Virus record (IMG/VR): IMGVR_UViG_3300001528_000017
Location: 1-64,000 of that record
DNA: 64,000 nt
Direction: 5' to 3' (one strand)
DNA from: a virus
Taxonomy: Duplodnaviria > Heunggongvirae > Uroviricota > Caudoviricetes
Shown: positions 5,000 through 34,948 of the stretch, in pieces
How positions within the stretch are numbered: the first letter of the stretch is position 1
Layout: every line of letters begins with the position of its first letter
The notes under the pieces: generated by a model
The model's input: only the letters and a program-made list of their open reading frames with translations
Database searches by the model: none
Told to the model about the DNA's origin: nothing
Made by a program: the position numbers and the translations under genes

Positions 5000-5523
5000 T
5001 ACTTCACTCCACTATGACCCAAGCCACCTCTGTTGGGGTTGCCAAGGCTGTCCACAACTTCAATCTTGATTCCACTAGAGAAGAGCCACTTGAGCTTCTG
5101 CCAGAATGTTGCCTTTTGAGACAAATGTATCCTGAACTGACAGATTCTGTCACCCTTCTGAATATTCACCTCTCCAGTTGCCATAACAGGCATGTGCCAC
5201 TGGTCATCTTCACCACAATAAGGTTGGTCAATGACTCCAGGGGAGTTCACCTGCAATATGTTGAACTTTTTGTTAGAGGAACTTCTAGGAGCAGAGTTAC
5301 CCTCCATTCCAGCAGGAAGCTCCATAGCAATACCAAGAGGTATGTTCTTAGTAGCGAATATTACTCTTCTCGAACTCTCTCCACCTTTCCTAGTCCTAGC
5401 AACTGCATAAGGACCATCAAGATGTACATCTTCTGCTGCTCTGAGGTCTATCCAATCCCCATCTTCTGATATTACAGGGAGACATCCCTCAGTCAGCACT
5501 TTTACTTTAATTTTCAGTTTCAT
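4999..5523 (-). CDS. dut: dUTP diphosphatase
   Basis: GVIDQPYCGEDD (motif 3-like) and C-terminal RGGLGHSG (motif 5). Confidence 0.7.
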   Translation of the reverse strand: MKLKIKVKVLTEGCLPVISEDGDWIDLRAAEDVHLDGPYAVARTRKGGESSRRVIFATKNIPLGIAMELPAGMEGNSAPRSSSNKKFNILQVNSPGVIDQPYCGEDDQWHMPVMATGEVNIQKGDRICQFRIHLSQKATFWQKLKWLFSSGIKIEVVDSLGNPNRGGLGHSGVK

Positions 5524-5527
5524 GTTT

Positions 5528-5980
5528 TCAAAATTTACTTGTTATGTCTACCAACTCCTTGCCATTGACTTTATAGAATCTCTGATTAGTAGTCCTACTG
5601 TTAAGTGGACCAAACTCTTCCTTATAAGGTCCAAGTTTTATATAATCAAAATTACACAAGTCAATGTGATTACTTAATTCTTGCCTTCCACTATACCAAG
5701 CTACCTTTATGGAATTATAATGGTTGATAATGAAGGAAGCCAAAACATTTACTTTATCTGGCTCTGCATCACCTCCCATAAGAGCTATGCAGCTAATCCC
5801 ACTATTCTTCTTGATAAGTTTCCTTACTTCATTGAAAGTCAGTTCAGTACCAATATCCTGTGCCAAGTAAGAGCTATGACAGCCCTTACATTGGCATGGA
5901 CAATTAGATATGTTAATAGCAAGAGTTATCTCATCTGGCACTTCAGCAAAGACTACTTTTGCATCCACATACTTTAGCAT
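5528..5980 (-). CDS. nrdG: anaerobic ribonucleotide reductase activating protein (radical SAM)
   Basis: CPCQCKGC cluster and small size (150 aa), adjacent to nrdD. Confidence 0.7.
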   Translation of the reverse strand: MLKYVDAKVVFAEVPDEITLAINISNCPCQCKGCHSSYLAQDIGTELTFNEVRKLIKKNSGISCIALMGGDAEPDKVNVLASFIINHYNSIKVAWYSGRQELSNHIDLCNFDYIKLGPYKEEFGPLNSRTTNQRFYKVNGKELVDITSKF

Positions 5981-6330
5981 ATCTCACTCCTCCCATCACT
6001 ATAAGTTCTATGACCTGCTTCAATCTGCCTGTCCTTACCAAAAGACTTAATAGGTCTGAGATACCCAATTACCCTTGTATATTGAGTAATGTTCTTACTA
6101 TGACACTTAGGACACTCAGTGATAGGATGCTTAGTAATGTAACCACACTCATCACACTTACTATTAGGAATATTAAATGTGAAATAGTTAGTTCCATTAG
6201 CTATAGCAAAGTCTATCAACTTGAGATACTGTTCCTTGCCAAGATGGTCTTCAAGATTGATATGTGCGGCAGAGCCTCCATCAGTATATTGGTAGGTCTG
6301 GTGGCCATGAAGAATGAACTTATCCAACAC
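5974..6330 (-). CDS. nrdD: anaerobic ribonucleotide reductase, C-terminal part (Zn ribbon and glycine-radical motif)
   Basis: CDECGY...CPKCHS zinc ribbon followed by TRVIGYLRP (RVxGY glycine-radical motif). In a different frame from the N-terminal part. Confidence 0.7.
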   Translation of the reverse strand: MLDKFILHGHQTYQYTDGGSAAHINLEDHLGKEQYLKLIDFAIANGTNYFTFNIPNSKCDECGYITKHPITECPKCHSKNITQYTRVIGYLRPIKSFGKDRQIEAGHRTYSDGRSEIC

Positions 6331-7091
6331 AGATGTATCATCGTGGGCATCATAGAAATAGCTATTGTATAAGTTCTCATCCTCTGGAACCCAATCATTC
6401 TGTTACACCCTCTCCCGTTGTGCAGAGAGGTGATTCATTAGCAATATAGTTATTTAAGTTTATCAAACCAGCATGTACTTTCCTATGACAATTAGCACAT
6501 AAGCAAACACACTTACTTACTTCTTGCAGAAGCCACTCCTTGCTCCTACTTCTATACTTACCTATGGTAAATTCCTTATCTACTGGATTGATATGATGAA
6601 AGTCAATACAAACAGGTTCTGCTTCTCCACAGACAATACAGGGAGTTTTTATGCTATTAAGCCATTCTCCTTGCCTATCCTGCCTTCTTGTAGCTTGTGC
6701 CCTGTGAATCTCAGGATGTTCCAATCTCCTTTGCTTCCTATAAGCTCTTCTACAATCCTTACATTGATGTCTTCCTTCATCAAACATCTCCAATGGTAAT
6801 TCTCTACCACAAATCTTACATAATTTAGTTTCCATACTTAATCATTTTGGGAGCAAAGTTAAAACTTTTATCCCAATTATGCAAGATTATAACCATATTT
6901 TTAATGAATGGATTAATATTTCTATTAACCTCTCTATGTTACCATAGAGTTCCGACTATTGCATACCTTAATATTCTATCTTCACAGATTGTATATTAAA
7001 GTCCTCTTTGTTTAGTCTGTCAGGCTGCACAGGTTTCCCTTGCTTGCCCCTCATAATCCCATAGGGACTTCTGAGTCAATTAAAAGAGGTT
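6331..7091 (-). other. intervening sequence splitting nrdD (candidate group I intron with HNH ORF, or split-gene insertion)
   Basis: 256 nt non-coding (6836-7091) plus the HNH ORF lie between the nrdD N- and C-terminal coding parts on the same strand. Confidence 0.45.
6395..6835 (-). CDS. HNH homing-type endonuclease inserted in nrdD
   Basis: CxxC...CxxC pairs, DFHHINP and CANCHRKVH (HNH motif). Located between the two nrdD parts. Confidence 0.75.
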   Translation of the reverse strand: METKLCKICGRELPLEMFDEGRHQCKDCRRAYRKQRRLEHPEIHRAQATRRQDRQGEWLNSIKTPCIVCGEAEPVCIDFHHINPVDKEFTIGKYRSRSKEWLLQEVSKCVCLCANCHRKVHAGLINLNNYIANESPLCTTGEGVTE

Positions 7092-8876
7092 TTAGATGGA
7101 CATTGGTTCTAATCCATCTTCCTTATCCCAATTATAGTTCTTTCCTCCCAATCCTTCAGCAGGGACTACCTCAGAATTGAATAGGAATGGTCTATTGGCA
7201 TCATGAATAGAGTGTAGCTTATTCTGCTCCTTGATAGTACCAAGAACCAGTTGCAGGAACTCAATATATTCCTTGTTGTTACCAACAGTCATATCTAAGA
7301 ATCTTGCAGCCTCATTTAAGCCATTGATACCTATGGTACTGTATAACTTGCTTATGTGAATATATCCACCATTTGAAGCAGCAAACATTCCCTTATCTTC
7401 AAGTTCATAGAGCATTGTCTTGAATGCAATATGATACTTGTAGACTCTTTGGAGAATATCTACTAAGTAATCTCTAAGAAATGAAGTATTTTCTTTCCAT
7501 CCCCCATTCCTCTTCAATCCATAAGCCTTGTTGCAATCTTGTACAATCCTATTGATATTAAGAGTAATAACATTGCATGAGCCTGTCATCACACCAGTAA
7601 GACCTGATGTAGGATTGAAAGTATTCTCTGCAAGCTCATTTCTCAACCTACAACATGATGCAAGACTATCAGCACTGTCTGATATATAGGTGAAGAAGCT
7701 ATGACCTTCTGCATACATTTCAGCAGTGAAGTCCTTATAGTCTTTATCTATGATGTCATTGGTCTTAGGGTCATACACCATAGCCATAGTCTCTACAGGG
7801 AATGTAAGAATCTGTTTGGTTCTTAGCTTATTGAAGAACTTCATAAACAACCTTTGCAGACAGTCTATTGCTCCCCATTGAGGCTTAGTACCATCAGGGT
7901 AATAGAACTCCCCAAACAATGAATCAAAGTAAGTATGGTCATAATAAGACACATTGGTAAATGGACTTTGATATGACCTATTGCCAGCAGGCTGATTTAC
8001 ACCATAGATAAACTGTTTGAATGCCTTATAGATAGCATCCCTGATAGTTCTTTGCTTGTTACAATGTTCTGTGGTAGTTATCACATCCAACTTCTCATAC
8101 CAATTAGGACCAAACTCTTGTACAATGTAATAGTTCAGTGCAATAAAGTATTCACCTACTGCCACTGCACCTTTACACTGAGAGGATAGCAAGAAGATAA
8201 GATTGGTTACTTGACCACTGAATGATTGCAAGTCATTAGGAGGTGTTGGAGTGATACCATCAATATTTCCTACTCCTTCCATCATAAGAGGATACAGACT
8301 TACAGCCATACAATACTGCTTCAAGACAGGAGTGGTTGCTTCATCATGTGTATAAATGATATGAGAGTTCAAATCCTCTTCATACTTCTTGGCTACTTCA
8401 GGGTACATTTCATTCAGCTTGTCTTTCATCCTTTGCCTCTGAATAACCCTATTAGTAGTCTTATACACTTCACCCTCAAGGTTGGCAACATTCTTCATTG
8501 TGACATTGGCATTTGCATCTGTTTCTGACGAAGTAGCTGCATTCTCATTGGATTGACTATACTCATTCATATAATCAATTCTTTCCCTAATGAATCTTGC
8601 CTGCTTATGTTGCTCTCTATAAATGATATAACTCTTTACTACATCAAAGTGTTTGTCATTCATAAGAACATCCTCAACCTTGTCTTGAATCTCTTCAATG
8701 TCAATAGTATCTCCTACTGTAAATAGAGTTCTAAGAGCATTCTCAACCTCCTCTGACATTTCCAGTTCAGATGCTAAGTATGCCTTCTTTACAGCATTGA
8801 TAATCTTCTCAACATTGAAAGGTTCCTTTCTTCCGTCTCTTTTAATAACTTCCATTAGTTCATGGTATTTAACCAT
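7092..8876 (-). CDS. nrdD: anaerobic ribonucleotide reductase, N-terminal large part (ATP-cone and catalytic barrel)
   Basis: N-terminal ATP-cone-like VKYHELMEVIKRDGRKEPFNVEKI. Class III RNR-size body lacking the C-terminal glycine-radical region, which is encoded downstream at 5974..6330. Confidence 0.7.
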   Translation of the reverse strand: MVKYHELMEVIKRDGRKEPFNVEKIINAVKKAYLASELEMSEEVENALRTLFTVGDTIDIEEIQDKVEDVLMNDKHFDVVKSYIIYREQHKQARFIRERIDYMNEYSQSNENAATSSETDANANVTMKNVANLEGEVYKTTNRVIQRQRMKDKLNEMYPEVAKKYEEDLNSHIIYTHDEATTPVLKQYCMAVSLYPLMMEGVGNIDGITPTPPNDLQSFSGQVTNLIFLLSSQCKGAVAVGEYFIALNYYIVQEFGPNWYEKLDVITTTEHCNKQRTIRDAIYKAFKQFIYGVNQPAGNRSYQSPFTNVSYYDHTYFDSLFGEFYYPDGTKPQWGAIDCLQRLFMKFFNKLRTKQILTFPVETMAMVYDPKTNDIIDKDYKDFTAEMYAEGHSFFTYISDSADSLASCCRLRNELAENTFNPTSGLTGVMTGSCNVITLNINRIVQDCNKAYGLKRNGGWKENTSFLRDYLVDILQRVYKYHIAFKTMLYELEDKGMFAASNGGYIHISKLYSTIGINGLNEAARFLDMTVGNNKEYIEFLQLVLGTIKEQNKLHSIHDANRPFLFNSEVVPAEGLGGKNYNWDKEDGLEPMSI

Positions 8877-9943
8877 TCAGTAATGCTATTACTCTCTTGA
8901 GTTTCTATTCCAATTGGCACTTCGGGTCTTGAAGAGAGATAATTAGCAAGGGTCTCACCCAAGTCAAATGGGTCTTGGAGTTCAATTTGCTGTCTTTTTC
9001 CGTAAGTTAATGTGCCAATCTTTTTGGTATCTTCAAACTTCCAAACAAGAGGAGTCAAGGTCTTCTTGTTGACTACTATGAACCTATAGTCTGCCAACTC
9101 ATAGTCCTTATAAACAGGGTCTCTGTTCATATTATCCCTGATAATTCTCCAATAAAGTCTTGCTTGAATGTCATACCTCCACTGAATAAAGGACTCAAAG
9201 AAGTCCCACTCAGTATGTGAACTTGTCTTCAAATCAATAGGGTAAACTATCTTGTTTTCATGGTCAACTAACAGTAAGTCAGCCATACACCTATAATTTA
9301 CTCCATTGAGTGTTGCCTTAAACTTGAGCTGATATTCTCTTACCCACCTTTGATTAAAGGGATTATTAGGGGAGAAGAAGAACTTGGTAGCTTTCTTAGT
9401 CTTCAGTGCATCTACAGCAGCATCTACTTGCTCCTTAGTAAAGGTATCAAGTATTTTCTTGTCACCAGCAGCATACATGAGAGAGTAATACTCACTTCCT
9501 TGCTCTTTCACTACCTTTGCTCTTGTCTCAGGTTTCCAATTGAGTTGATAACTGAGTTCTTCTGATAAGTCTATGAGGTCCTTTGTGGGGACATCATTGA
9601 GGGTTGTGTATTCTCCACTCCATCTGTCAAATGCAGCCTTAACCATTTTAAGGACTGAATCTGTTACAGGAGGAAAGTCTGCAACCATGAATCCATTATC
9701 AAACTCTTCTTGACCACCAGTGATAAGGGCATCAACAGCACTACCAAAAACAAGACTAGGGGTGTCAAGCTTATCAAACAACGTATCAAGTTTGTTGAAG
9801 CCCTCCCTAGCAAACTTGGCAATGGTGCTGTATGAAAGTGCTTCATCTGCCCTATATGTGGGTTCGTCAACCTGCCAACTGATTTCATAAAGTTTCTTTA
9901 TTTCCATGCTAGATAATGTCAGATATAGAGGCTTGAAGGTCAT
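8855..9943 (-). CDS. PD-(D/E)XK-fold nuclease (recombination exonuclease-like)
   Basis: CMADLLLVDHENKIVYPIDLKTS fits a D...(D/E)xK nuclease core. Confidence 0.4.
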   Translation of the reverse strand: MTFKPLYLTLSSMEIKKLYEISWQVDEPTYRADEALSYSTIAKFAREGFNKLDTLFDKLDTPSLVFGSAVDALITGGQEEFDNGFMVADFPPVTDSVLKMVKAAFDRWSGEYTTLNDVPTKDLIDLSEELSYQLNWKPETRAKVVKEQGSEYYSLMYAAGDKKILDTFTKEQVDAAVDALKTKKATKFFFSPNNPFNQRWVREYQLKFKATLNGVNYRCMADLLLVDHENKIVYPIDLKTSSHTEWDFFESFIQWRYDIQARLYWRIIRDNMNRDPVYKDYELADYRFIVVNKKTLTPLVWKFEDTKKIGTLTYGKRQQIELQDPFDLGETLANYLSSRPEVPIGIETQESNSITEWLNTMN

Positions 9944-24336: not shown

Positions 24337-24882
24337 TTAGTCGTTAAACACTGTGTAGGAGTCCACCCTGCCACCTAAGCTTGCAGCTGTAGCATTAAGA
24401 TGCCACTCCAGTCTCTGTTGTATGCTTGCAGCTCTCCATGCTTGAACTTCAAGAGGAGTCCCATCTACCCACTTCTTGGTCTTCCTGTCAAGTCTAGACC
24501 TTGTAGGCATATAGGGTTTGAAGTTCTTGGGAGCATGATAACCATGTGGCATTTCACTACTAATCATGTAGTCATAAGCCTCTTGGCACATGTTGATACT
24601 CTGCTTTACTTCCCTGCTCTTACGAGTGTAATAGGTAAGAGTCTCAGTCTTTCCCTTCTCTGTTAAAGAATCAACCTCAACATCATGCCTGTTATACTTG
24701 GTTAAGTCAGGTACAGTCTCATAGTACCAAAGAAGGTTGCCCTTCTTATCCCTCGCCTGCTTACCAGCATACTTGCCCCTCTTGTTAATGATGGGCTTTC
24801 TGAGTTGTTTTGAGCACTCCTGCTCACTCATCATAGCAGCACCTTGTACTACTATAACAAGATTTATTTTAATATTACTCAT
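24337..24882 (-). CDS. hypothetical protein
   Basis: 181-aa ORF, last protein gene before the RNA-gene region. Confidence 0.4.
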   Translation of the reverse strand: MSNIKINLVIVVQGAAMMSEQECSKQLRKPIINKRGKYAGKQARDKKGNLLWYYETVPDLTKYNRHDVEVDSLTEKGKTETLTYYTRKSREVKQSINMCQEAYDYMISSEMPHGYHAPKNFKPYMPTRSRLDRKTKKWVDGTPLEVQAWRAASIQQRLEWHLNATAASLGGRVDSYTVFND

Positions 24883-24999
24883 AGAAAAACCGTGTGTGCG
24901 TTTTTTTTTTTACAAGTGATAGTCACTAAGTTACGAAGTTCACATGATAATGCAATGAATTAGAATGTATGTAGTGAATTGTAAGTGACTTTAGAGTAG

Positions 25000-25115
25000 G
25001 AGAGAGAAGAGGACTCGAACCTCTACCACGGAAACCCAAATTCTCTGCTTACGGCTTGGTAAGTGCAAAACCTTGCACTAATGCGACGTGTGCTACCATT
25101 ACACCATCTCTCTCT
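25000..25115 (-). ncRNA. aberrant tRNA-like element E1 (about 115 nt): 7-bp terminal stem, D-arm, T-arm, 60-nt internal region with hairpins
   Basis: AGAGAGA/TCTCTCT terminal stem, GTGT-AATGGTA-GCAC D-arm, AGAGG-TTCGAGT-CCTCT T-arm. No recognisable anticodon arm. Confidence 0.45.
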
Positions 25116-25117
25116 AG

Positions 25118-25192
25118 GGGACAGGGTTGGAGTCAAACCAACGATTTACAGCTTAGACTACTGTAGCTCCTTATCCACGGAGTTGCCTGTCC
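25118..25192 (-). tRNA. diverged tRNA-Arg(TCT)-like paralog with non-canonical anticodon loop (G33 or 9-nt loop)
   Basis: GGACAGG/CCTGTCC acceptor, CTCC/GGAG D-stem, TACAG-TAGTCTAAG-CTGTA anticodon arm. Resembles the bona fide tRNA-Arg(TCT) at 29361-29432. Confidence 0.4.
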
Positions 25193-25198
25193 ATTGTT

Positions 25199-25317
25199 AG
25201 CTACTAATATGAATCTCACAATTACAAGTTGTGCGCTCTAACCACTGAGCTAATCTTCCGATATTGGTAGAAAATATAGGAGTCGAACCTATGCTTAATG
25301 TGTTTTTGTAAGTAGCT
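25199..25317 (-). ncRNA. circularly permuted tRNA-like module flanked by a long terminal helix (YrlA / Y-RNA-like candidate)
   Basis: Order on the minus strand: terminal strand AGCTACT, T-arm ATAGG-TTCGACT-CCTAT, acceptor-like stem ATTTTCT/GGAAGAT closed by a 9-nt loop, D-arm GCTC-AGTGGTTA-GAGC, stem-loop CACAA-CTTGTAA-TTGTG, terminal strand AGTAGCT pairing with the 5' end. Confidence 0.4.
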
Positions 25318-25322
25318 ATTTG

Positions 25323-25432
25323 CGGCGGAGCTGGGAGTCGAACCCAGATTTTCAAATTTGACATATTTGCGTTAATAAATTTGATGTTGTAAGTAACTAA
25401 ACAGATACTATTTCCGTTTAACTACTCCGCCT
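25323..25432 (-). ncRNA. tRNA-Asp(GTC)-like gene with a roughly 36-nt insertion between D-arm and anticodon stem
   Basis: GGCGGAG/CTCCGCC acceptor, CAAAT-ATGTCAA-ATTTG anticodon arm, CTGGG-TTCGACT-CCCAG T-arm. Insert carries ACTTACAA and ends ...TTAACG. Confidence 0.45.
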
Positions 25433-25439
25433 TATTTGT

Positions 25440-25564
25440 GGGGAGGGCTGGACTCGAACCAGCAATTTCAAAATCCTAATTTTTGCGTGTTTACCTGAAT
25501 TTTTGAGATAGTATTGTAAGTGACTCAAGTCACTCAGTAAATTACTACTTTCACTACCTCCCCA
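25440..25564 (-). ncRNA. tRNA-Leu(TAG)-like element with a roughly 50-nt insertion (hairpin GTGAC-TTGA-GTCAC plus ACTTACAA)
   Basis: GGGGAGG/CCTCCCC acceptor, CAAAA-ATTAGGA-TTTTG anticodon-like arm, GCTGG-TTCGAGT-CCAGC T-arm. No GG in the D-loop. Confidence 0.4.
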
Positions 25565-25880
25565 TAATGACAGTATAAAAGCCATCCGTTGTACACCGTT
25601 ACTTAAACTATCTGTCAGTTGGCTCCTCAATTAGAGGATACTCATACCTCGTGTATGTGTATGCCAGTTTTAGTAGAGCTGCCCTTACTCAAACTCTTCT
25701 GTTGCACCATTGTCTGTGGGCACCACATGAACTCCTTTTACCTAGAAACTTGCTAGCAGCTAGAAGGACTTATTATAAGTTCATTGGCAGACGGTATTGT
25801 CTAGGTCACTTGCTTACCTTCGTCAATATAAGCAATAAAAACATGGCTACGAATTTCAAAGATTTGTAAGTGACCTCTTG

Positions 25881-25999
25881 GGGGACAGATGGGACTCGAA
25901 CCCATAACCTTAAGAATTGCAATCTCACGTTAAAGAAGGAATAGTAAGTGTCTGAAAGACACTCAAGTAAACTACTCTATCCAATTGAGTTACTGTCCC
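25881..25999 (-). ncRNA. tRNA-Cys(GCA) gene interrupted by a 44-nt insertion at position 26/27
   Basis: Removing GTTTACTTGAGTGTCTTTCAGACACTTACTATTCCTTCTTTAACG leaves a canonical 73-nt tRNA: GGGACAG, ACTC-AATTGGATA-GAGT, TGAGA-TTGCAAT-TCTTA, ATGGG-TTCGAGT-CCCAT, CTGTCCC. Confidence 0.5.
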
Positions 26000-26011
26000 C
26001 ATGTTGTTTTG

Positions 26012-26133
26012 CGGGGAGTGAAAGAATCGAACTTCCACTTCTGGATTGTGTCCCAGAAAATTGTAAAAGATGATATTGTATGTGAGCTACATTCACACAA
26101 TACAATCGGGCCTAACCAATGCCCAAACTCCCC
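26012..26133 (-). ncRNA. aberrant tRNA-like element E6 with about 50-nt insertion
   Basis: GGGGAGT/ACTCCCC terminal stem, GGGC-ATTGGTTAG-GCCC D-arm, GGAAG-TTCGATT-CTTTC T-arm. Insert contains CACATACAATATC. Confidence 0.4.
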
Positions 26134-26151
26134 TTGATTTGGATACTAATG

Positions 26152-26224
26152 AATTACATCTTGGAATCGAACCAAGTACACTCGGATTATCAATCTGATG
26201 CTCTACCAAATGAGCTAATGTATT
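26152..26224 (-). tRNA. tRNA-Ile(GAT)-like paralog (compact, with acceptor and anticodon-stem mismatches)
   Basis: GCTC-ATTTGGTA-GAGC D-arm, TCAGA-TTGATAA-TCCGA anticodon arm, CTTGG-TTCGATT-CCAAG T-arm. Preceded by the ACTTACAATATC motif. Confidence 0.45.
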
Positions 26225-26298
26225 TTGATATTGTAAGTATCCATTAGTGGATGAGTGAGGTATCACCCTCACCCACCCTAGTTCTTCGGAAAAAGGTC

Positions 26299-28116
26299 CT
26301 ACAGAGTATTCTCTCTTACGAGTTCATACCTGTTTGACCTGTAGATAGACTGCAATGGAGTATAGACATCAAAGACATCCATATCCTTGAAGTTTGTCAG
26401 GAGCTGCTCAATCTGTGCAGGGTTAGATGGTATGTACATGAGGTTGTCAATACCACTGAACCTCTCAGCATTCACTCTGTCATTCCTTGTCACATCAATG
26501 GCAACAATGTAAGGTCTGAACCCTAACACTGATTCACATTGCCTGAGCAAATCATTGACAGAAGCTTCAGGGCTAGGAAGGTTATTCCACTCTCCATCAG
26601 ATATGATGGTCCACACAGGATAAGACTTGAGGGCATCTACCAATTGAGGCATACCTACCAAGGCTTCCTTGATGCTTCTAATGAGAGTAGAAATGTCAGT
26701 CCAGCCACTACCAAAGGTAGCCTGACAGAAAGAGCTGATGTTCTTGTAGTTCTCCATGAAGCTCTTAGTGGGGTCCACAAATGGCTTATGCACAGACTTA
26801 GTAGCAGCTCTTCTCATAATAGAATTAGGAGAATCACTTGCCTCTTTGTCCATGTAGCTAAACCACCTTGTGTTCCTACCAAAGAAGCCTAATAGGTTCC
26901 TACCATCATCATCAGGGTTCTTCACCAGACATACGGCAGCCAAGAAAGATGCAAATGCAAAAGGACTACCACTCATAGAGCCTGAATCATCAATGATGAC
27001 AAGGCTGTTATAAGGCAAGTTTACCTTATTCTGAATGAAAGCCTCAAGCTTGAGAGTATCTACTCTACCACTCATAATCTGGTCATAGAGTTCATTGAAG
27101 CTGGTAGCACCAACATTCACCTTAGCCTGCTTCTTAACCTTTTGCAGCTTTTCCACATCCTCGGTGCTTGCTTGGCCTTGTCTTACCTTCTCTTCAAGAA
27201 CTCTCTGTTCAGCCTGCTTCTGCTCCTTGTACTTCTCCCACTCAGTGTACCATGCAGCAAGGTTGGGCCACTTCAGGGATTCGTCAGTGTTCTTTGAGTA
27301 TTGAACTCTGTTCTTTACTCTGAACCTTGCCTGAGAGGGGAGTTTGTCGAGCCAATCAATGAACTGAGTCTTGTCAAACTCCTTGATTTTACCCGTAGAG
27401 AATAACACAGATTCCAGTGAACCATTGTACTCTTTTCTCCAATCTCTGTAACCCTTAAAGTTGGCATAAGCACCCTTTACAGTGTGCTCCCAACCCATCA
27501 GCTTGGATAACTGAATGAGGAATGCAGTTTTGTGCTCCATGACCTGCTTGGTCTGAGGGAGCATTTGCTTGTGACCAGCTCTCTTGCTAAGTCTAGGTAT
27601 AGTGAGGAACTTAGCCACCAACATTTTATTGAAGGGGTTAGTACCATTGATTACACCATACACAAACTCCACAAGTTTGTCCCTGTACCAAGTGTCTGCG
27701 AATATGTCATACACCTTCAAGACCTTAGCTCCCTTGGTCTGAACTCTAGACCTAAAGAGCAAGTCAAAGCAGGTATATTCATTGAACAGACCCTTGTTGA
27801 GGAACTGAACAAACTGGTCCCTATGGTTTACTCTCAGCCAGTCAAAGATGACATAAAAGCCAGCTCTGTTAGCATTACCACCAGAGTCCTTCTTCACACC
27901 CTTGAAGATATTATGCTGTCTAGCAGTAATATCTCCTACAGAGAACAGGATTGAGAAGAACATCTGACGTTGCTCCTTGCTGTCCTTTACTTCATTCCAA
28001 CAGGCATCAAGCAAAGACTCTGTAATTGTACCACCTACACTCTGAAAGAGCTTAAGGCAGTTACGCAGTCCATAAAAAGGATTGCTGTTACTCTTGTTTA
28101 ACTTAACTTCTACCAT
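26299..28116 (-). CDS. vWA-domain protein with N-terminal alpha-helical domain; candidate Ro60/Rsr-like (TROVE + vWA)
   Basis: MIDAS motifs LVIIDDSGSMSG (DxSxS), FGSGWTD, ISDGEW. N-terminal LKLFQSVGGTIT resembles the Ro60 FLCFGSEGGTYY motif. ORF track starts at a TTG (28122); first ATG is at 28114-28116. Confidence 0.5.
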   Translation of the reverse strand: MVEVKLNKSNSNPFYGLRNCLKLFQSVGGTITESLLDACWNEVKDSKEQRQMFFSILFSVGDITARQHNIFKGVKKDSGGNANRAGFYVIFDWLRVNHRDQFVQFLNKGLFNEYTCFDLLFRSRVQTKGAKVLKVYDIFADTWYRDKLVEFVYGVINGTNPFNKMLVAKFLTIPRLSKRAGHKQMLPQTKQVMEHKTAFLIQLSKLMGWEHTVKGAYANFKGYRDWRKEYNGSLESVLFSTGKIKEFDKTQFIDWLDKLPSQARFRVKNRVQYSKNTDESLKWPNLAAWYTEWEKYKEQKQAEQRVLEEKVRQGQASTEDVEKLQKVKKQAKVNVGATSFNELYDQIMSGRVDTLKLEAFIQNKVNLPYNSLVIIDDSGSMSGSPFAFASFLAAVCLVKNPDDDGRNLLGFFGRNTRWFSYMDKEASDSPNSIMRRAATKSVHKPFVDPTKSFMENYKNISSFCQATFGSGWTDISTLIRSIKEALVGMPQLVDALKSYPVWTIISDGEWNNLPSPEASVNDLLRQCESVLGFRPYIVAIDVTRNDRVNAERFSGIDNLMYIPSNPAQIEQLLTNFKDMDVFDVYTPLQSIYRSNRYELVRENTL

Positions 28117-28167
28117 TTTCAAGATGATTTTGATTGTGAATTGTAAGTAACAATATGCCCGAACTAA

Positions 28168-28611
28168 TCAAAAGTCCTCATCAGCATCAATAGCCGTAAG
28201 CTGTGCTTCAAGCTCCTTGATTCTGTCTTCAGGAGTCTTCTGAGATTCCTTGAGTTCCTTGAGCTGTGCTGTGAGTTCAGCCTTCTTAGCCTTAGCCTCA
28301 GCCACCTCCATATTGTGCCTCTTCCAGCCAATGATGAGGTTGACCAACTCCTTCCTTCTCTTGAGGGCTTCAAGCTTCTCCTGCTGATAGTCTGTTGCCA
28401 CCCATTCATCCTGCTTCTCAAGGTCTTCAATCTGCTTTGTAATAGCAAGCCTGATACCATTGAGAGTGTTGATGGTCTGTGTGTGCATCAGCTCAACAAT
28501 GTTGAGGGGCTGACCCATCTTTGTTGTAATAGCCTCATTAGCTACCAACATAGCAAATGCCAGTTCTTTCATCTTGGCATAATGCTCTTTTGTGAAATTG
28601 ATTTTTGCCAT
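28168..28611 (-). CDS. hypothetical coiled-coil protein
   Basis: 147-aa ORF, heptad-rich E/K/L sequence. Confidence 0.4.
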   Translation of the reverse strand: MAKINFTKEHYAKMKELAFAMLVANEAITTKMGQPLNIVELMHTQTINTLNGIRLAITKQIEDLEKQDEWVATDYQQEKLEALKRRKELVNLIIGWKRHNMEVAEAKAKKAELTAQLKELKESQKTPEDRIKELEAQLTAIDADEDF

Positions 28612-28651
28612 TGTTTTAAGCTTATTAAACGGTGAATAAATAAAAATATCG

Positions 28652-29136
28652 TGGAGCTAGAGGGAGTCGAACCCTCGTCCAAACAATCTCAGAATAAGAA
28701 ATGGGTACACGCTTTTGTTGTTTAAGCACAACTGCTAGGGATGACAGATTTGTCACCAGTCCACCACTCTATTTTGAGAAAACAGAGAAAACACCTTCCT
28801 CACATATTGCATACCCATACCTTGTGTTGCCACTACGCATGTTGCCCCAGTTATTGGAAGGTTGAGATAGTGGCTTACCTTCTCCGTGCATCAGAGCTTA
28901 TTTAGCACTAGGACCTCGGACTACCAATCTTAGTTTCCTTTCAGATGTTTCTATCTCATTTGCCCACTTTCTGTTTCAGGTAATGGGCTACCTAGCACTT
29001 ACGCAGCTAATCTGATAACAGTGCTGCTGGCAGGAGTCATTACAACTACCTTAGCATTTATTGGTTTGCCATTTTCAGGCATGACTGCCTGCGTGATTTC
29101 TTACCCCTCCTTTGCTGTCAAAACCAGAATAGCCCC
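28652..29136 (-). ncRNA. ssrA: tmRNA (SsrA), phage-encoded
   Basis: 5' end GGGGCTATTCTGGTTTTGAC matches the tmRNA consensus GGGGCUGAUUCUGGAUUCGAC. 3' end GAGGG-TTCGACT-CCCTC-TAGCTCCA matches the tmRNA T-arm/acceptor (...AGCUCCA). Internal frame ends ...TTA GCT GCG TAA (LAA-stop). Confidence 0.6.
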
Positions 29137-29197
29137 AGAGTCATCTTGTTGGTCAGGAAGATGTGAATATTGGGATGATTTCTTTTCCTAACCTCTA

Positions 29198-29270
29198 GTA
29201 GGGAGTGAAGGACTTGAACCTCCAACCTTGAATGTATAAGATTCCTGCGCTAACCATTGCGCCAACTCCC
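29198..29270 (-). tRNA. tRNA with anticodon TAT (Ile, AUA-reading)
   Basis: GGGGAGT acceptor, GCGC-AATGGTTA-GCGC D-arm, GGAAT-CTTATAC-ATTCA anticodon arm, GGAGG-TTCAAGT-CCTTC T-arm. Confidence 0.55.
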
Positions 29271-29360
29271 CATGAACCTACCGATATTCCCATACAGGCA
29301 GGCTCTACAACTAAATCTTTGCCTAAAATCTACCTTTTTACCTTAAACGAAACCTAAGAG

Positions 29361-29432
29361 TACCCCAACTAGGACTCGAACCTAGATTTACAGCTTAGAA
29401 GGCTGTTACTCTATCCCTTGAGTTATTGGGGC
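29361..29432 (-). tRNA. tRNA-Arg(TCT)
   Basis: ACTC-AAGGGATA-GAGT D-arm, ACAGC-CTTCTAA-GCTGT anticodon arm, CTAGG-TTCGAGT-CCTAG T-arm. G1.U72. Confidence 0.6.
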
Positions 29433-29579
29433 ATACTGACTCCTACAAACCTTAACACCGCCACACCCTTCACTATACATCCAATTCCTTGAATGTCATA
29501 GCTACTTCCTCGGAGTCAGGGACTACCTTGTGTCTCTGCACTTCCACAAAACTAGGTGGTTGAGAGTTTACCAGTAGTG

Positions 29580-29653
29580 TACTGCAAGTGGGAATCGAAC
29601 CCACAATCTCCACCTTGAAAGGGTGACGAGTTGACCAATTCCTCTATTGCAGC
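29580..29653 (-). tRNA. tRNA-Glu(TTC)
   Basis: TCACC-CTTTCAA-GGTGG anticodon arm, GTGGG-TTCGATT-CCCAC T-arm, GCTGCAA/TTGCAGT acceptor. Confidence 0.55.
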
Positions 29654-29655
29654 AT

Positions 29656-30798
29656 TCAGGCTACCTTATTTATCTTTTGATAGCCCTTACCTATTACTAT
29701 ATGAGGCATCCACTCATCCATATTATTCAGTACGAATTTCTTCCTTACCTTATAGGATTTATAGTGTCTCATCAGTCCTAGGTAGGAGTTTACTGAAGAG
29801 ATAAAGTCATCCATCTTGTCCTCATTATAATGTGAGTACCTAGATGATACTTTGTTGTACATCTTACAGATGGCTCTCCCTCCACAGTATATCCTGTTTT
29901 GTTTGATTATTGCTCCAACAAATGTAACACCCCTTGAACATTCTTGGATATAAAGTTTGTCAGGGTGTACAGTTAAGAGCAGTTGTTCAGTAGCAAATGC
30001 CTTCAATAGTGGAATACAAGATTTCAGATACTCTAAATTCTCATGTCCTACTACGAAGTCATCTGCATACCTCACAATTACCAAGCCTAAGCTCTCACAG
30101 TAATGGTCAAAGGGCGTGAGATAGAAATTGGCAAACATCTGTGATGTTAGATTGCCAATAGCTAATCCCTTGTCCTTACCAACATAGAATAAGCTCTTGC
30201 TTGGTGGAAGTTTCTCCCATAATGATATATTTCCTACTTTAATGCAATTGTCCTCAGGATGATGAAGAATAATCATTCTACATAACCACCTTAAACAGTT
30301 TTTCTTTCTGTTTTCAGGATAGTTCTGTACAATGAAACTATCTAGATTCTCACATAACAATTGTTTGTCAATAGTCATAAAGAAACTTTGATAGTCTAAC
30401 TTAGCTATATAATAGGGTTTCGTGTAATGCTCACTCTTCTCATCTAATATGGAGGATAGTTTCTGCACACCATGTAGTGTGCCTCTACCCTTCAGACAGG
30501 AGAATGTGTTTGCTATGAAATAACTTTCAAAGTAAGGCTCTAACTCCCTTATTACTAAGTGGTGAACTATTCTATCCCTAAAGTCAGCAGCAAACACTTC
30601 CCTGACTTTTAGGTCAGTGATAATGAATGCTTTTGATACACCTATTTCATAAGTGTAGGAATTGATTTCATCAGTCAGCTTAAGTAAATTAGTTACCTTA
30701 TCTACACAAAACTCTTTAGCTCCTATAGTATTCTTCTTATGCTTTAGGCAATCATCAAATGCAGTAAATACCTCATCATAAGTGAAACTATAATCCAT
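29656..30798 (-). CDS. DGR reverse transcriptase (DGR1)
   Basis: YADDFVV catalytic motif and DGR-type LAIGNLTSQ (IGxxxSQ) motif. 380 aa. Adjacent TR. Confidence 0.8.
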   Translation of the reverse strand: MDYSFTYDEVFTAFDDCLKHKKNTIGAKEFCVDKVTNLLKLTDEINSYTYEIGVSKAFIITDLKVREVFAADFRDRIVHHLVIRELEPYFESYFIANTFSCLKGRGTLHGVQKLSSILDEKSEHYTKPYYIAKLDYQSFFMTIDKQLLCENLDSFIVQNYPENRKKNCLRWLCRMIILHHPEDNCIKVGNISLWEKLPPSKSLFYVGKDKGLAIGNLTSQMFANFYLTPFDHYCESLGLVIVRYADDFVVGHENLEYLKSCIPLLKAFATEQLLLTVHPDKLYIQECSRGVTFVGAIIKQNRIYCGGRAICKMYNKVSSRYSHYNEDKMDDFISSVNSYLGLMRHYKSYKVRKKFVLNNMDEWMPHIVIGKGYQKINKVA

Positions 30799-30823
30799 AG
30801 CATATTGAAAATAATACGAATCG

Positions 30824-30940
30824 CAGAAGCATAAAAAGGAACAATTCTGTTAGTGTTGTTCTTGTTGTTCCAATTACAGTTCACTCTGTTTCTGTTAAGG
30901 TTACAGTTCCATGAGTTGTTAGAATTGTTCTCAGAGCAAC
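30824..30940 (-). repeat. DGR1 template repeat (TR)
   Basis: About 117-bp near-repeat of 31473-31589. On the coding (minus) strand the TR carries A where the VR varies. Confidence 0.75.
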
Positions 30941-31089
30941 TTATGCCATTGAATGTGAGCTAGTCACACTTTAACGACCTGTGAAACACAGACTGTATGG
31001 CATCCTTCCACAATAATGTACCATTTGTCCCCAGTGTTGAACCAACCATTGAAGATTGTTATGCTCTACACGCACCTTGAGGGAATACA

Positions 31090-31278
31090 CTATGAAATCA
31101 TATCGAATAGGGCAATTAGTCTCTTTCTAGGTTCAATTATGTTGAATTTACCCTTCAAGAGTAATGCCCCATCCTCTATGCACTCATCTAACAATGTTCC
31201 CAAGGTAATCAAATCATTGTAGAGTTTATCAGAGTCAAGGCTGTAATTCCTACCCTTACAGGCAAGTTTTACAGGCAA
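31090..31278 (-). CDS. small ORF between VR and TR (possible short accessory/Avd-like)
   Basis: 62-aa ORF in the canonical avd position. Too short for a typical Avd. Confidence 0.25.
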   Translation of the reverse strand: MPVKLACKGRNYSLDSDKLYNDLITLGTLLDECIEDGALLLKGKFNIIEPRKRLIALFDMIS

Positions 31279-31410
31279 GTTTTACAGCAATCTTGACATC
31301 TAATAATATATTGATTATTCTATCTCCCTCATTGTACCTATTATATCTAGGCATGTGTTTGATAGCTTTCCTCAATTCTCTACTAATGAAATCTATTTCC
31401 TTGTAAACAT

Positions 31411-32457
31411 CTATATAGTTGATTTCCATACTTTACACAATGTATTACTCAGACTCTTTTTTTTTGCTTGTGTGGAAGCATAAAAAGGAACAACCCTGTA
31501 AGTGTAGTACTTGTAGCCCCAATAACAGAACACTCTGCCGCTGTAAAGGGCACAGTCCCATGAGCAGTCAGAATAGCCCTCAGAGCAAGACCAATACCAA
31601 TAGTCAGTGTTGATAATGAAACCAAGACCAGTTATCTTGTGTGCTGCATTGAGGTATGCTGCATTATCTAACATAGTCATAGTCTCACCAAGACTGCCAA
31701 AGTACCAATCTTCCTTCTTATCCTTGCGATAGTTGATACATCTTTCAAAGGCACCAAATCTCTCCTTGTCCTTACCCTTTATTTGCTTCTTGTATTGGGC
31801 AGTAACCTCTCTACCATTGAATAACTTCATGGCTTTCTCCCATGATGTATGTTCTCCAATCTTAGAGTTACGGTCAGTATCCCATACTTCTCTGAACATT
31901 TCCAAAGCACAGATAATGGGGCTTCCATCTTCATAGAATCCACATACTATGCCTCTTACTTTGGTCTTAGCAATCTTCTTGGTAGGATGAACAAAGGAGT
32001 CATCAATCATCTGATAATCACCAACTCTGATGCCATTCTTCTCAGGAGCACTCTCAAGTATCTCCTTAAAGAGCTGAATGTCAACGGATTCATTGGTACC
32101 CTTTTCTTCAGTGATAAGCATTTGCCTAGCAGCTATCTCAGTTCCAAATGAGTCAATCCAGTATTCAGTACCCTTAGGAATAATAGCCTTGGCACAATAG
32201 TTGCCATAGTCATCACTCTCACTCAGCTTGGCATGAATTACACCACCTCCCATGCTAGATATTTCTCTATCATAGAGGTCTTTGCACTCATAACTGATGT
32301 AAGGAGTATCAGGCTGTGCAACCATCAACTTGCCCAATGTAACAGGTGTTCCCTGACATGGACTTTCATATCCCCTGCTTGTCTGCTTGAGATACTTTAA
32401 TACCACAATGTCCCTCTTGGCAACTCGTGGTTGTTTGTCTCTAATGTATAAACACAT
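31411..32457 (-). CDS. DGR1 target protein with C-terminal C-type-lectin-like variable region
   Basis: VR at the 3' end. C-terminus DYWYWSCSEGYSDCSWDCALYSGRVFCYWGYKYY is aromatic/Cys-rich like DGR CLec VRs. Confidence 0.7.
   Translation of the reverse strand: MCLYIRDKQPRVAKRDIVVLKYLKQTSRGYESPCQGTPVTLGKLMVAQPDTPYISYECKDLYDREISSMGGGVIHAKLSESDDYGNYCAKAIIPKGTEYWIDSFGTEIAARQMLITEEKGTNESVDIQLFKEILESAPEKNGIRVGDYQMIDDSFVHPTKKIAKTKVRGIVCGFYEDGSPIICALEMFREVWDTDRNSKIGEHTSWEKAMKLFNGREVTAQYKKQIKGKDKERFGAFERCINYRKDKKEDWYFGSLGETMTMLDNAAYLNAAHKITGLGFIINTDYWYWSCSEGYSDCSWDCALYSGRVFCYWGYKYYTYRVVPFYASTQAKKKSLSNTLCKVWKSTI
31473..31589 (-). repeat. DGR1 variable repeat (VR)
   Basis: Aligns to the TR with mismatches only at TR adenines (coding strand). 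Confidence 0.75.
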
Positions 32458-32492
32458 AAGCGGTAAAAAGTTATTAAGTTGTTAAACAATAG

Positions 32493-32564
32493 TACCCTCA
32501 CCAAGAATCGAACTTGGATTTAATGTTTAGGAAACACTTGTTCTATCCATTGAACTATGAGGGC
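32493..32564 (-). tRNA. tRNA-Arg(CCT)
   Basis: GTTC-AATGGATA-GAAC D-arm, AGTGT-TTCCTAA-ACATT anticodon arm, CCAAG-TTCGATT-CTTGG T-arm. Confidence 0.55.
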
Positions 32565-32608
32565 ATGGAGCAGGCTATTACACCTGCTCACTAGGCACGT
32601 CCTGCTTA

Positions 32609-32974
32609 TCAGTCAAGCTCAAAGAGTCTCTTCATGACAGTTTCAGGGTCAGGAGCCTTGCCTCTCTCCTCAGGATGGTCCTTGAGGTACTCCAAGTTGG
32701 CTTGTACACCAGTATGGATTACATCATGCAGACTTATCATCTGAGAAGGAGTGAGGTGTGTGAGAATGATGCCCTTGATGATGGTCAACTTCTCATCCTG
32801 ATTCTCCACTTGCTTCAGGTCCTCATCAACACCAGTGAAATTGCTGTTGTTTTCGAGTTCCAGAGCCTCAATAGCCTGACGCTTGAGTTCTTTAGGTGCT
32901 ACAATGTCAGCACCAGAGGCCATGAGCATCATAAGCGCAATCTTACTCATGCCTTCTTTCATTGTCTGTCCCAT
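32609..32974 (-). CDS. hypothetical protein
   Basis: 121-aa ORF. Confidence 0.35.
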   Translation of the reverse strand: MGQTMKEGMSKIALMMLMASGADIVAPKELKRQAIEALELENNSNFTGVDEDLKQVENQDEKLTIIKGIILTHLTPSQMISLHDVIHTGVQANLEYLKDHPEERGKAPDPETVMKRLFELD

Positions 32975-32982
32975 GTTTTTTT

Positions 32983-33222
32983 TTAGGGGTTACTACTTTG
33001 TTTATTTAGCTTCTTTAGCTTGTTAAGCTTTTCGAGTCTTCTGTTTGTCATGTAATCCATTACAGGTTTGTATGCTATGAGCATAATGCAGTGCAACAAA
33101 CTAGTCACACATACAATTAGGAATGGCTCCTCATTTATTAAGCAACTGTTTTCTTCAAACCCAGGCTTATCCATATAGTCTTGAATCTCAGGCCAAGTAA
33201 CTATGATGAATGTTTCTTTCAT
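32983..33222 (-). CDS. hypothetical small protein
   Basis: 79-aa ORF. Confidence 0.3.
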   Translation of the reverse strand: MKETFIIVTWPEIQDYMDKPGFEENSCLINEEPFLIVCVTSLLHCIMLIAYKPVMDYMTNRRLEKLNKLKKLNKQSSNP

Positions 33223-33455
33223 TGCCTTATCAGCCTTTCAAACCACTGACAACCTGATAGCTTGTAGCACTCTCTGTAAGAGAGGTTGCAATAGCAAAGG
33301 TAGCCAAGGATTATGTTGATTACTAACCAAATGATAGCAGGAAGCCATCTTTCAGCCTCTACCAAACTCTCGAACCCTCCAATGATAAAGAGAGTAATAG
33401 ACAATGCTGTGACCCACAACAATATGCCTTTTAATGTTATAATGATTGTCTTCAT
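33219..33455 (-). CDS. small two-TM membrane protein
   Basis: 78 aa, strongly hydrophobic. Overlaps the downstream ORF at ATGA. Confidence 0.35.
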   Translation of the reverse strand: MKTIIITLKGILLWVTALSITLFIIGGFESLVEAERWLPAIIWLVINIILGYLCYCNLSYRECYKLSGCQWFERLIRQ

Positions 33456-33617
33456 TTTGTCTCTATTGTACGGTATTCGTTCTTTAGTGTGGTTCTACCT
33501 TGGAGTTGAACAGTGTTGGTAGTGTCCCAGTATAGTTAAACCAAGGAGACCACTCAACACCATTCTTTCCAAAGAATTGGTATCTCTTTTGTAGTTGTTT
33601 TGCTATAGGAGTGTGAT

Positions 33618-33917
33618 TTAATCGTCATAAGGTATTACTTCTGTGTACACATAGACATCAAGCTCCTCATTATAGCTAAACTCGTGGTAGGAATGTAAAG
33701 CATTAACCATTGATGGCTCTAGCTTATTCTTATGTAGCCAATATCCCTTTGTCCAACTGCCATCATTCATGATAGATTCAATGGCTTTATGGGCATGTGG
33801 ATAGTTCATGTCTTCTGTCTTGATGTGGTAAACATGATGTTGAGTGTAGTCATTGTTAGACAATTCTCTTTTGTACTCAATCTGATACATGTAACCATTG
33901 TAAAACTCAGTTCTCAT
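33618..33917 (-). CDS. hypothetical protein
   Basis: 99-aa ORF. Confidence 0.35.
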   Translation of the reverse strand: MRTEFYNGYMYQIEYKRELSNNDYTQHHVYHIKTEDMNYPHAHKAIESIMNDGSWTKGYWLHKNKLEPSMVNALHSYHEFSYNEELDVYVYTEVIPYDD

Positions 33918-34414
33918 TTGTGCAAGGATTTAGTTGTTTGTTAATGTATTGTTACCACCACCAATGGTATTCATTAGCCAATTGCCATAATATTAAGAGG
34001 AAAATAGCTAGTGCCAACCAAGGTGAGCATCCATTGTTGTCTTGATTATTGTTTGTTGCCATGACCTTTGATGCTATGTATTACTGATAAATGGGATAAA
34101 ATGGGAATAAAGATTGAGGATAAAATGTGGGGTTTGGTGTTATAAGCCCCTCTCAATACCCTCAATCTCTATAACCATCTTCTTCTTAATTGACTCAATT
34201 CTATGTAATTACACAATAATGATTCAAGTGTTACTTTAGTCATGAATGTCATGTCCTTACAAAGAGTATAAGGTCAAGAAGAGTTGTAGTTAGACCTACA
34301 TCATTCACTAAGTCATGCAGTCTTTAGGTCATTGTACTCACTACCCAAAGAAGTGTATGAGTTCAAATACCCAAAGTCCCAAGGCTCCCCGAAGGGAGCC
34401 ACATGGGTTGCTGC

Positions 34415-34717: not shown

Positions 34718-34948
34718 AACTGTTTACACTTCCATTTGCAAGTGTGAAGCTTTAAGTTGTTAATGATGTTAATGATGTTAATGGGCAGGGGGAGTCTCCC
34801 AACCTGCCGAAGGCTAGGGGGGGTTTTGGGTGGCTACCACCCACGCTTGACAATCAATATAGGGTAAAAAAAAAATCCAAAATTAAAAAATTTTATATGC
34901 CAACCATAAGTTTTTTACTTATTCTCTTGCATATATCAAAAATTATGC

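Follow-up and report, generated by a model that had tools for sequence, protein, structure and literature searches.

The window analysed here, a stretch of 64,000 nucleotides (nt; positions 1 to 64,000 of IMG/VR virus record IMGVR_UViG_3300001528_000017), carries an interrupted copy of nrdD, the gene of a class III ribonucleotide reductase (RNR). Three minus-strand open reading frames (ORFs) follow one another at this locus in the ORF list, encoding 594 amino acids (aa; 8876..7092), 146 aa (6835..6395) and 118 aa (6330..5974), with a gap of 256 nt (7091..6836) between the first and the second, HNH-like frame, and with the two nrdD pieces in different reading frames. Pfam matches and translation agree with the initial annotation in assigning the ATP-cone and barrel to the N-terminal piece, and the Zn ribbon (CDEC...CPKC) and the motif TRVIGYLRP to the C-terminal piece. 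That annotation wavered between a group I intron and a gene split by a homing endonuclease. We consider it very probable that the segment 7111..6396 is a mobile group I intron residing in the class III RNR gene nrdD of a crAss-like phage, and conclude that the locus holds one intact nrdD gene rather than two fragments and a stray endonuclease.

Nucleotide homology to the uninterrupted nrdD genes of crAss-like phages cr85_1 (717 aa) and cr111_1 (716 aa) ends at 7114/7112 and restarts at 6395/6390 according to blastn and tblastn, and a combined DNA and protein comparison with the same two genes locates the break between 7112 and 7111 at one end and between 6396 and 6395 at the other. The junction GGAU/AUUGGG (here and below the slash marks the exon boundary) is the only one to yield the sequence ...KEDG-Y-WVPEDE... 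found in cr85_1 and cr111_1, with exon 1 terminating in ...GAAGAUGGAU and with a predicted ligated-exon junction of ...AAGGAAGAUGGAU/AUUGGGUUCCAGAGG..., to be compared with GAAGAUGGCUAUUGGGUCCC in the intron-less cr85_1-type target. Taking out the 716 nt produces a 728-aa NrdD ORF that is collinear with cr85_1 and cr111_1 (83% and 95% aa identity to cr85_1 for exons 1 and 2, respectively), in which Pfam recognizes an ATP-cone (E 2e-22) and an NRDD domain (E 7e-79, residues 131–719 of the spliced product), and in which the insertion point, residue 588 of 728, separates the barrel from the Zn/glycyl-radical domain.

Alignment to intact NrdD, a check proposed with the initial annotation, thus upheld its view of the two pieces as collinear parts of one protein, and supplied the exact break. 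Its ORFs and the change of frame were likewise correct, but the exon limits read from them were not: exon 1 ends at 7112 and not at 7092, the six terminal codons of the 594-aa ORF (LEPMSI, followed by the stop) belonging to the intron, and exon 2 begins at 6395 and contributes 140 aa, not 118 aa from 6330. Similarly, the 256-nt stretch preceding the 146-aa HNH ORF was accurately placed but is not idle non-coding sequence, as together with the 20 nt preceding it this segment constitutes the ribozyme core. The first possible start in exon 2, a GTG at 6330, is preceded by 22 conserved residues (YWVPEDENLYNSYFYDAHDDTS), and no ATG, GTG or TTG codon occurs between 6395 and 6330; these residues would therefore be missing from a C-terminal piece translated by itself. 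Coordinates of the intron, its predicted helices and the surrounding coding sequences are collected in Table 1.

Table 1. The interrupted nrdD locus: coding segments and predicted RNA helices, in window coordinates (MFE, minimum free energy; bp, base pairs)
Feature	Position	Strand	Description
nrdD exon 1	7112..8876	minus	ATP-cone and most of class III RNR barrel; Pfam, blastn/tblastn
Group I intron (very probable)	6396..7111	minus	716 nt; first bases UAGAACCAAUGUCCAUC, last bases GUAACAGAAUG; 3'-terminal G6396
Intron ORF	6395..6835	minus	146 aa, ATG at 6835; HNH-type (ββα-metal, Zn-binding Cys pairs), putative homing endonuclease
nrdD exon 2	5974..6395	minus	140 codons + stop; YWVPEDENLY..., Zn ribbon, glycyl-radical motif RVIGY
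nrdG-like activase ORF	5528..5980	minus	150 aa, CPCQCKGC cluster motif; downstream context, outside intron
P1 hairpin	7095..7118	minus	GAUGGAU (7118-7112) / guide GUCCAUC (7101-7095), 7 bp; U7112•G7101 at 5' splice site
P10	6391..6395	minus	Exon 2 bases 1-5 AUUGG / intron CCAAU (7106-7102), 5 bp
P3	7089-7083 / 7009-7003	minus	CCUCUUU/AAAGAGG; encloses P4-P6 domain and P7 5' strand (span 7003..7089)
P4	7075-7072/7053-7050	minus	MFE fold, covariation
P5	7067-7064/7060-7057	minus	MFE fold, covariation
P6	7048-7046/7025-7023	minus	MFE fold, covariation
P6a	7043-7038/7033-7027	minus	GAAA loop; MFE fold, covariation
P7 pseudoknot	7019-7014/6957-6953 (span 6953..7019)	minus	CAGACU, bulged A7018, / AGUCG
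P8	7002-6993/6974-6965	minus	Extended; inner hairpin with GUGA loop
P9	6949-6932	minus	CUCUAUG-GUAA-CAUAGAG; MFE fold, covariation
P9.1	6930-6911	minus	GGUUAAUA-GAAA-UAUUAAUC; MFE fold, covariation
P9.2 long-range helix	6909-6902/6440-6433 (span 6433..6909)	minus	AUUCAUUA directly after P9.1, exact complement UAAUGAAU
3'-terminal hairpin	6432-6406	minus	CACCUCUC...GAGAGGGUG; arms covary across 10 members
Near-invariant 3' tail	6405-6396	minus	UAACAGAAUG; conserved at all three nrdD sites

Within this architecture exon 1 ends in U and the intron in ...AAUG, whose last base is G6396, and the loop of P1 contains the P10 guide CCAAU immediately 5' of the P1 guide. The P7 pseudoknot, with G7017-C6954 as its guanosine-binding pair, encloses J7/3 (AAAC), the P3 3' strand and P8, and is embedded in blocks closely resembling the classical R and S elements (ACAGACUAAA; AAUAGUCGGAAC). 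No P2 helix is seen in the window intron, and P7 is separated from the P3 3' strand by only 4 nt. P9.2 closes a loop of 461 nt (6901–6441), in which a leader of 66 nt and the greater part of the HNH ORF are located; the remainder of this ORF runs through the 3' strand of P9.2, the terminal hairpin and the tail, so that its UGA stop codon (6397–6395) spans the 3' splice site and consists of the two last intron bases and the first base of exon 2. MFE folding without constraints, applied to the first 290 nt, recovers P1, P3, P4, P5, P6/P6a, P8, P9 and P9.1 (z = -5.1), and P9.2 is predicted unaided when the whole 737-nt precursor is folded (z = -6.5).

Comparative analysis lends strong support to these pairings. 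In a MAFFT alignment of 10 sequences 94.3% of cells are paired and 30 pairs change on both sides, as opposed to 38–47% and 8–11 pairs, respectively, in controls in which the 3' partners were slid by 1–3 columns. A covariance model built from this alignment with P7 left out, designated R1, scores the window intron at 229 bits and, at E ≤ 0.001, matches 145 times in viral loci totalling ~0.9 Mb, as well as giving 44 matches at E ≤ 1 in a further search of 0.23 Mb; at E ≤ 0.001 it detects no further copies of the family in the 64-kb window. For 123 distinct sequences 94.7% of 6114 cells are paired (37–43% when slid), and both sides have changed in 56 of 59 pairs. None of 500 shuffles reaches the observed values. 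Among individual helices, P3 has changed on both sides in 7/7 pairs with 94% of cells paired, P8 in 8/8 pairs, and P9 and P9.1 are paired in 98.8% and 94% of cells, respectively. P7, absent from the alignment model, is paired in 100% of cells, with a closing pair that varies between GC (59), CG (26), AU (20) and UA (2) and a G-C pair that is invariant (108 of 108).

Since the exons differ between nrdD sites, P1 and P10 were checked separately. P1 comprises 6–7 bp with a terminal U•G in 10/10 members representing three exon contexts, and P10 forms 3–7 bp adjoining the P1 guide in 10/10 members, both helices varying in step with the exon. In the larger family 95 of 121 members have U•G at the splice site, and all seven P1 pairs change on both sides. 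P9.2 is likewise conserved, its eight pairs forming in each of the 10 members with compensatory changes.

Relatives of the intron were gathered by scanning IMG/VR for the J6/7-P7 block AGCCUGANAGACUAAA, resulting in more than 119 loci. Some 14 copies are 95–99.7% identical and occupy the same nrdD site, as does a second group (L078 and others) at 72–73% identity, and related introns are found at two other nrdD positions, following ...FN(S/T)E(V/Q)VP (cr85 residue 565) and ...ILTFP (residue 355). The 716-nt element is 95–99.6% identical in contigs whose exons are only 69–94% identical, and the step in identity relative to other contigs falls exactly at the intron boundaries. IMG/VR also contains 93 intron-less alleles with the WDKEDGYWVP junction, the nearest of which is 92.8% identical to the spliced gene and thus as close to it as the nearest intron-bearing alleles. 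Empty sites, the identity step at the boundaries, and the presence of a homologue with its own HNH ORF at the identical site in a Prevotella Lak megaphage (see below) together bear the signature of homing by an element that moves between co-infecting phages.

Several nrdD genes in this collection carry two or more insertions, at ~357–363 and 565 in L092, ~404 and 565 in L111, and ~404–426 and 582 in the Lak-B8 phage (L003; cr85_1 residues). With multiple insertions in these and other genes, nrdD emerges in gut phages as a hot spot that the intron family occupies at several sites. Separately, R1 produces three to five full-length matches, at intervals of a few hundred bases, on individual viral contigs of non-gut origin with a GC content of 0.41–0.53 (IMG/VR loci L008, L063, L059, L095, L100, L103, L105, L106, L119 and others); with this number of matches per contig, some phages appear to harbor dense arrays of related group I introns.

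The ORF contained in P9.2 encodes a small Zn-binding HNH protein. All of its PHROG matches are annotated 'HNH endonuclease' (PHROG 2255, E 8e-30; PHROG 3106, E 1e-23; PHROG 35854, E 5e-13), and its translation displays the motif CIDFHHIN...N...CLCANCHRKVH with flanking Cys pairs and an N-terminal CxxC...CxxC finger. The protein is 60% identical to that encoded in the Lak-B8 intron. At the other nrdD sites the same ribozyme is accompanied by HNH_3 ORFs (with or without AP2) of 229–292 aa, and the L111 relative is an ORF-less version of 306 nt in which the P9.2 helix is kept. Because other-ORF and ORF-less versions of the same ribozyme exist, the HNH ORF is best described, on comparative grounds, as a modular passenger in a defined P9.2 slot. 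Two further observations concern this ORF. Its homolog gp8 of crAss001 (40% identity) is free-standing and located among tRNA genes, and the intron copy of L082 (at the position labelled site A) suffered a deletion at ~380–420 that took out the leader along with the HNH ORF's 5' end but spared the ribozyme core, which looks like endonuclease decay in progress.

A plausible sequence of events can be drawn from established group I intron chemistry. Following transcription of nrdD through the intron, its first ~210 nt would fold as the catalytic core (P1, P3–P9.1), with P9.2 and the terminal hairpin returning the distant 3' end to this core. Exogenous guanosine bound at the P7 G-C pair would then attack after U7112 at the P1 U•G, after which G6396 would take the same site, P10 would align exon 2, and the exons would be ligated, recreating the Tyr codon U/AU and full-length NrdD. 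Unspliced RNA would give rise only to a truncated protein, with a stop 6 codons into the intron. The HNH protein would act as the homing endonuclease of the intron, cutting or nicking intron-less nrdD of co-infecting phages near GAUGGAU/AUUGGG, and subsequent repair would copy the intron into the intron-less gene.

Several results weigh against this interpretation. Catalysis, in vivo splicing, and the activity and specificity of the endonuclease are all inferred from sequence. At the gathering score Rfam reports no group I match in the whole 64-kb window, and at E ≤ 10 none in the 1.6 kb between 5800 and 7400; Infernal analysis with the group I model (RF00028), as advised with the initial annotation, gave a match only when limited to 236 nt, where the same helices were matched at 35.4 bits (E 8.9e-8), short of the gathering score of 50. 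A pairing partner for the 3' tail UAACAGAAUG was looked for and not found. For the HNH ORF the best Pfam match (HNH_2, E 0.026) is below the cut-off, a PDB sequence search returned no match at E ≤ 1, and the AlphaFold single-sequence model is too poor to be of use (predicted local distance difference test, pLDDT, 58.6; predicted template modelling score, pTM, 0.33). Finally, there is no sign of co-conversion, exon identity being no higher beside the intron than further away, and recent homing events therefore leave no visible tract. As to the Rfam negatives, the match obtained in the 236-nt search identifies them as effects of filters and thresholds and not as absence of the intron; the shortfall lies in the curated threshold, which a divergent phage intron lacking P2 fails to reach, and not in the structure.

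Alternative explanations of the locus must account for the same arrangement. In Aeromonas phage Aeh1 (nrdA/mobE) a free-standing HNH gene splits the reductase gene, and the halves are translated separately and assemble without splicing. The succession of two nrdD ORFs with an HNH ORF between them would be expected from such a split, functional intron-less split RNR genes are known in phages (PMC3653736), and Rfam shows no intron at its gathering score. Nevertheless exon 2 offers no start codon between 6395 and 6330, so that the 22 conserved residues would go, whereas a complete covarying ribozyme, whose P1 and P10 fit the exons, is built from the 276 nt that precede the HNH ORF together with the last 45 nt of the ORF, and the ORF-less version in L111 is left unexplained by insertion of a free-standing endonuclease. 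We therefore regard this half of the initial annotation's alternative as highly improbable, its other half, the group I intron, having been borne out by the ribozyme and by the restored frame.

Equally improbable, in our estimate, is that the intron or insertion has decayed and lost the ability to splice, leaving nrdD a pseudogene in the window phage. Splicing in this phage is predicted from sequence, and decay of the ORF does occur in relatives, such as L082 with its lost HNH 5' end and Lak-B8, whose ORF is interrupted or shortened. Against this, the core helices, guanosine-binding pair, P1, P10 and terminal G are all intact in the window copy, the reading frames of both exons are open and no conserved NrdD motif is missing, more than 10 independent contigs show this intact arrangement again with exons that have diverged yet remain open, and nrdG is still translationally coupled downstream. 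Removal of the interruption by an intein or by ribosomal bypassing, instead of RNA splicing, has some precedent, as phage genes for nucleotide metabolism and replication are known to harbor inteins and, in one case, a translational bypass element (PMC3653736; bioRxiv 10.1101/2022.08.31.505936). Here, though, the 716 nt are not a multiple of 3, the frame is shifted and an in-frame stop occurs 6 codons inside, no intein or Hint domain was found with Pfam or PHROGs, and the insertion is far longer than the known 50-nt bypass gap; frame shift, in-frame stop and size effectively refute this possibility, the chance of which we consider negligible. The group I intron thus remains by a wide measure the preferred explanation of the locus.

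The intron interrupts what seems to be an operon. Upstream, the stop codon of a PD-(D/E)XK nuclease ORF overlaps an nrdD ATG (TAATG, 8857–8853), and since the ATP-cone extends from residue 8 and homologues align from this point, the true start of nrdD is probably this ATG at 8855 and not 8876. Downstream, the ATG of the nrdG-like ORF, for which Pfam provides a weak Fer4_12 match (E 4e-4), overlaps the nrdD stop (ATGCTAA, 5980–5974). These overlapping stop and start signals suggest translational coupling across the PD-(D/E)XK, nrdD and nrdG-like genes. A scan of 5400–9100 for sigma-70 promoters and intrinsic terminators gave counts no higher than in shuffled sequences and is uninformative for a Bacteroidota phage, except that it detected no obvious terminator between the nrdD exons. 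As for the phage itself, megablast of 5500–9000 against deposited phages finds only crAss-like Steigviridae/Asinivirinae (cr85_1, cr111_1, IAS virus) at ~80% identity, and for a 16-kb stretch elsewhere in the window the sole match is the portal gene of cr111_1 (71%). Based on these matches the window is assigned to a crAss-like phage with no close deposited relative.

Elsewhere the window is rich in tRNA-like sequences. Approximately 28 tRNA genes occupy 24500–39500, in clusters at 25–33 kb (minus strand) and 36–39.5 kb (plus strand), a large number comparable to that of crAss001, and several tRNA-like genes are followed downstream by the recurring motif CACUUAC(A/U)A. Three minus-strand Rfam tRNA matches are unusually long, 25118–25259 (142 nt, 31.8 bits), 25323–25431 (109 nt, 51.4 bits) and 25881–25999 (119 nt, 40.7 bits), and ARAGORN makes no call for any of them. 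According to the Rfam alignments one contains a 39-nt insert in the D-loop, in another ~54 nt replace the anticodon arm, and in the third ~70 nt are found in the variable region; they may represent tRNA genes carrying unusual insertions, and recall the 'enigmatic' tRNA introns of Lak megaphages (PMC6784885). A full-length Rfam tmRNA match (28649–29136, minus strand, 69.5 bits, E 5e-25, 488 nt compared to a model of 374 positions), for which ARAGORN also makes no call, would be a phage-encoded tmRNA adjoining the tRNA cluster.

These findings have several implications. The exact exon junction of nrdD is now defined for annotation purposes. Scanning with Rfam at curated thresholds misses the window intron and probably many of its relatives, and with 145 R1 matches in ~0.9 Mb, introns in gut-phage genomes are likely under-called. 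The near-identical intron in a flanking gene that has diverged by up to 30% provides a clean example of recent horizontal spread. Together with occupation of the same site in a Lak megaphage, it argues for co-infection and exchange of DNA between Bacteroidota phages of very different kinds. Intron carriage is also extended to the Steigviridae-like crAss lineage. The intron is new for this lineage and site and its structure is well resolved, yet mechanistically it is ordinary, leaving the known workings of group I introns and homing endonucleases unchanged.

A broader proposal, which we put forward tentatively and consider unlikely as it stands, is that the window intron belongs to a large lineage of compact P2-less introns (a core of ~210 nt, an ORF slot in P9.2, and the invariant tail UAACAGAAUG) that homes across unrelated families of gut Bacteroidota phages, has colonized at least 3–4 nrdD positions with interchangeable endonucleases, and is largely invisible to Rfam at its gathering score. 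Its carriers may include Steigviridae crAss-like phages, contigs of 145–270 kb, part of them within the size range of Zeta-group crAss-like phages, and Lak megaphages of Prevotella. If true, nrdD would serve as a common 'landing pad' that documents the exchange of DNA between phages with no other sequence in common, and the P2-less family might merit its own structural subgroup.

Among known systems, the T4 nrdD (sunY) intron, to which the initial annotation compared the locus, is alike in its target, the large-subunit gene of a class III RNR, and in its layout of a compact 5' core, a 3' endonuclease ORF and a remote 3' splice site. In the model alignment it likewise has no P2-like helix separating P1 from P3, and it shares several sequence blocks with the window intron (UAAAA after P1; AUAGUCNGAACU-P9 with a GGUNAC loop; the tail AACA..UUG). 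Indeed, R1 matches the sunY core (L124, 7623–7858), which is experimentally self-splicing in T4, over the full model at 51.7 bits (E ~1e-11 to 1e-13). The resemblance thus holds for gene, layout and core, but does not extend to insertion site or endonuclease family. The T4 intron is located after nt 538, in codon 180 of 605, far upstream of residue 588 of 728, so that a common insertion site is rejected, and it encodes the GIY-YIG enzyme I-TevII (PMC2988022) instead of a small Zn-HNH protein. P6 and P7 are separated by ~62 nt in T4 and ~22 nt in the window family, and the hosts are unrelated, T4 belonging to the Straboviridae on E. coli and the window phage to the Crassvirales on Bacteroidales. 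In the Michel-Westhof classification, subgroup IA2 is marked by P7.1/P7.2 helices between P7 and the P3 3' strand, for which the 4-nt J7/3 (AAAC) of the window intron leaves no room.

Phage group I introns with an HNH ORF in a peripheral loop are also found in nucleotide-metabolism or replication genes of Bacillus phages SPO1/SP82 (I-HmuI/I-HmuII), Staphylococcus phage Twort nrdE (I-TwoI) and RB3 nrdB (I-TevIII), whose enzymes nick one strand or cut near the site in intron-less alleles (PMC2988022; PMC3653736). These reside in other genes and sites and encode larger, HNH_3/I-HmuI-type enzymes with extended DNA-binding tails, whereas the 146-aa window ORF matches PHROG 2255 and not Pfam HNH_3; ORFs of the HNH_3 type do accompany related ribozymes at the two further nrdD positions. 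Among the split RNR genes of phages, nrdD is the most frequent (PMC3653736). In Jug (jumbo gut) phages of Bacteroides/Phocaeicola, 95 of 104 genomes have nrdD fragmented by group I introns, often with HNH genes, with ribozymes of ~200 nt and splicing demonstrated by metatranscriptome reads (PMC12880540); compared by description only, these introns are similar in ecosystem, host phylum and target gene but belong to another phage lineage.

Within the crAss-like phages, the Delta and Zeta groups are intron-dense and the alpha–gamma group is without such insertions (Yutin et al. 2021, PMC7886860). The nearest relatives of the window, Steigviridae/Asinivirinae cr85_1, cr111_1 and IAS virus, have an uninterrupted nrdD, and Delta and Zeta are other lineages; of the relatives assigned to site C, whose contigs measure 77–270 kb, three fall inside the 145–192 kb range of the Zeta group. 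Lak-B megaphages of Prevotella (MK250020-28) carry an unannotated intron at a site identical to that of the window, GAUGGAU/.../AUUGGGU; Lak papers report tRNA introns, and the nrdD intron is not among them (PMC6784885). The Lak-B8 intron resides in a myovirus-like megaphage of ~550 kb. Its HNH ORF contains in-frame TAG codons, TAG being a sense codon in Lak phages, and, unlike its window counterpart, ends before the 3' hairpin; the P5 extension of the intron is also longer. The Lak-B8 and window introns share 66% nucleotide identity over the element and form the same helices, of which P3, P7, P6a and P8 show compensatory changes.

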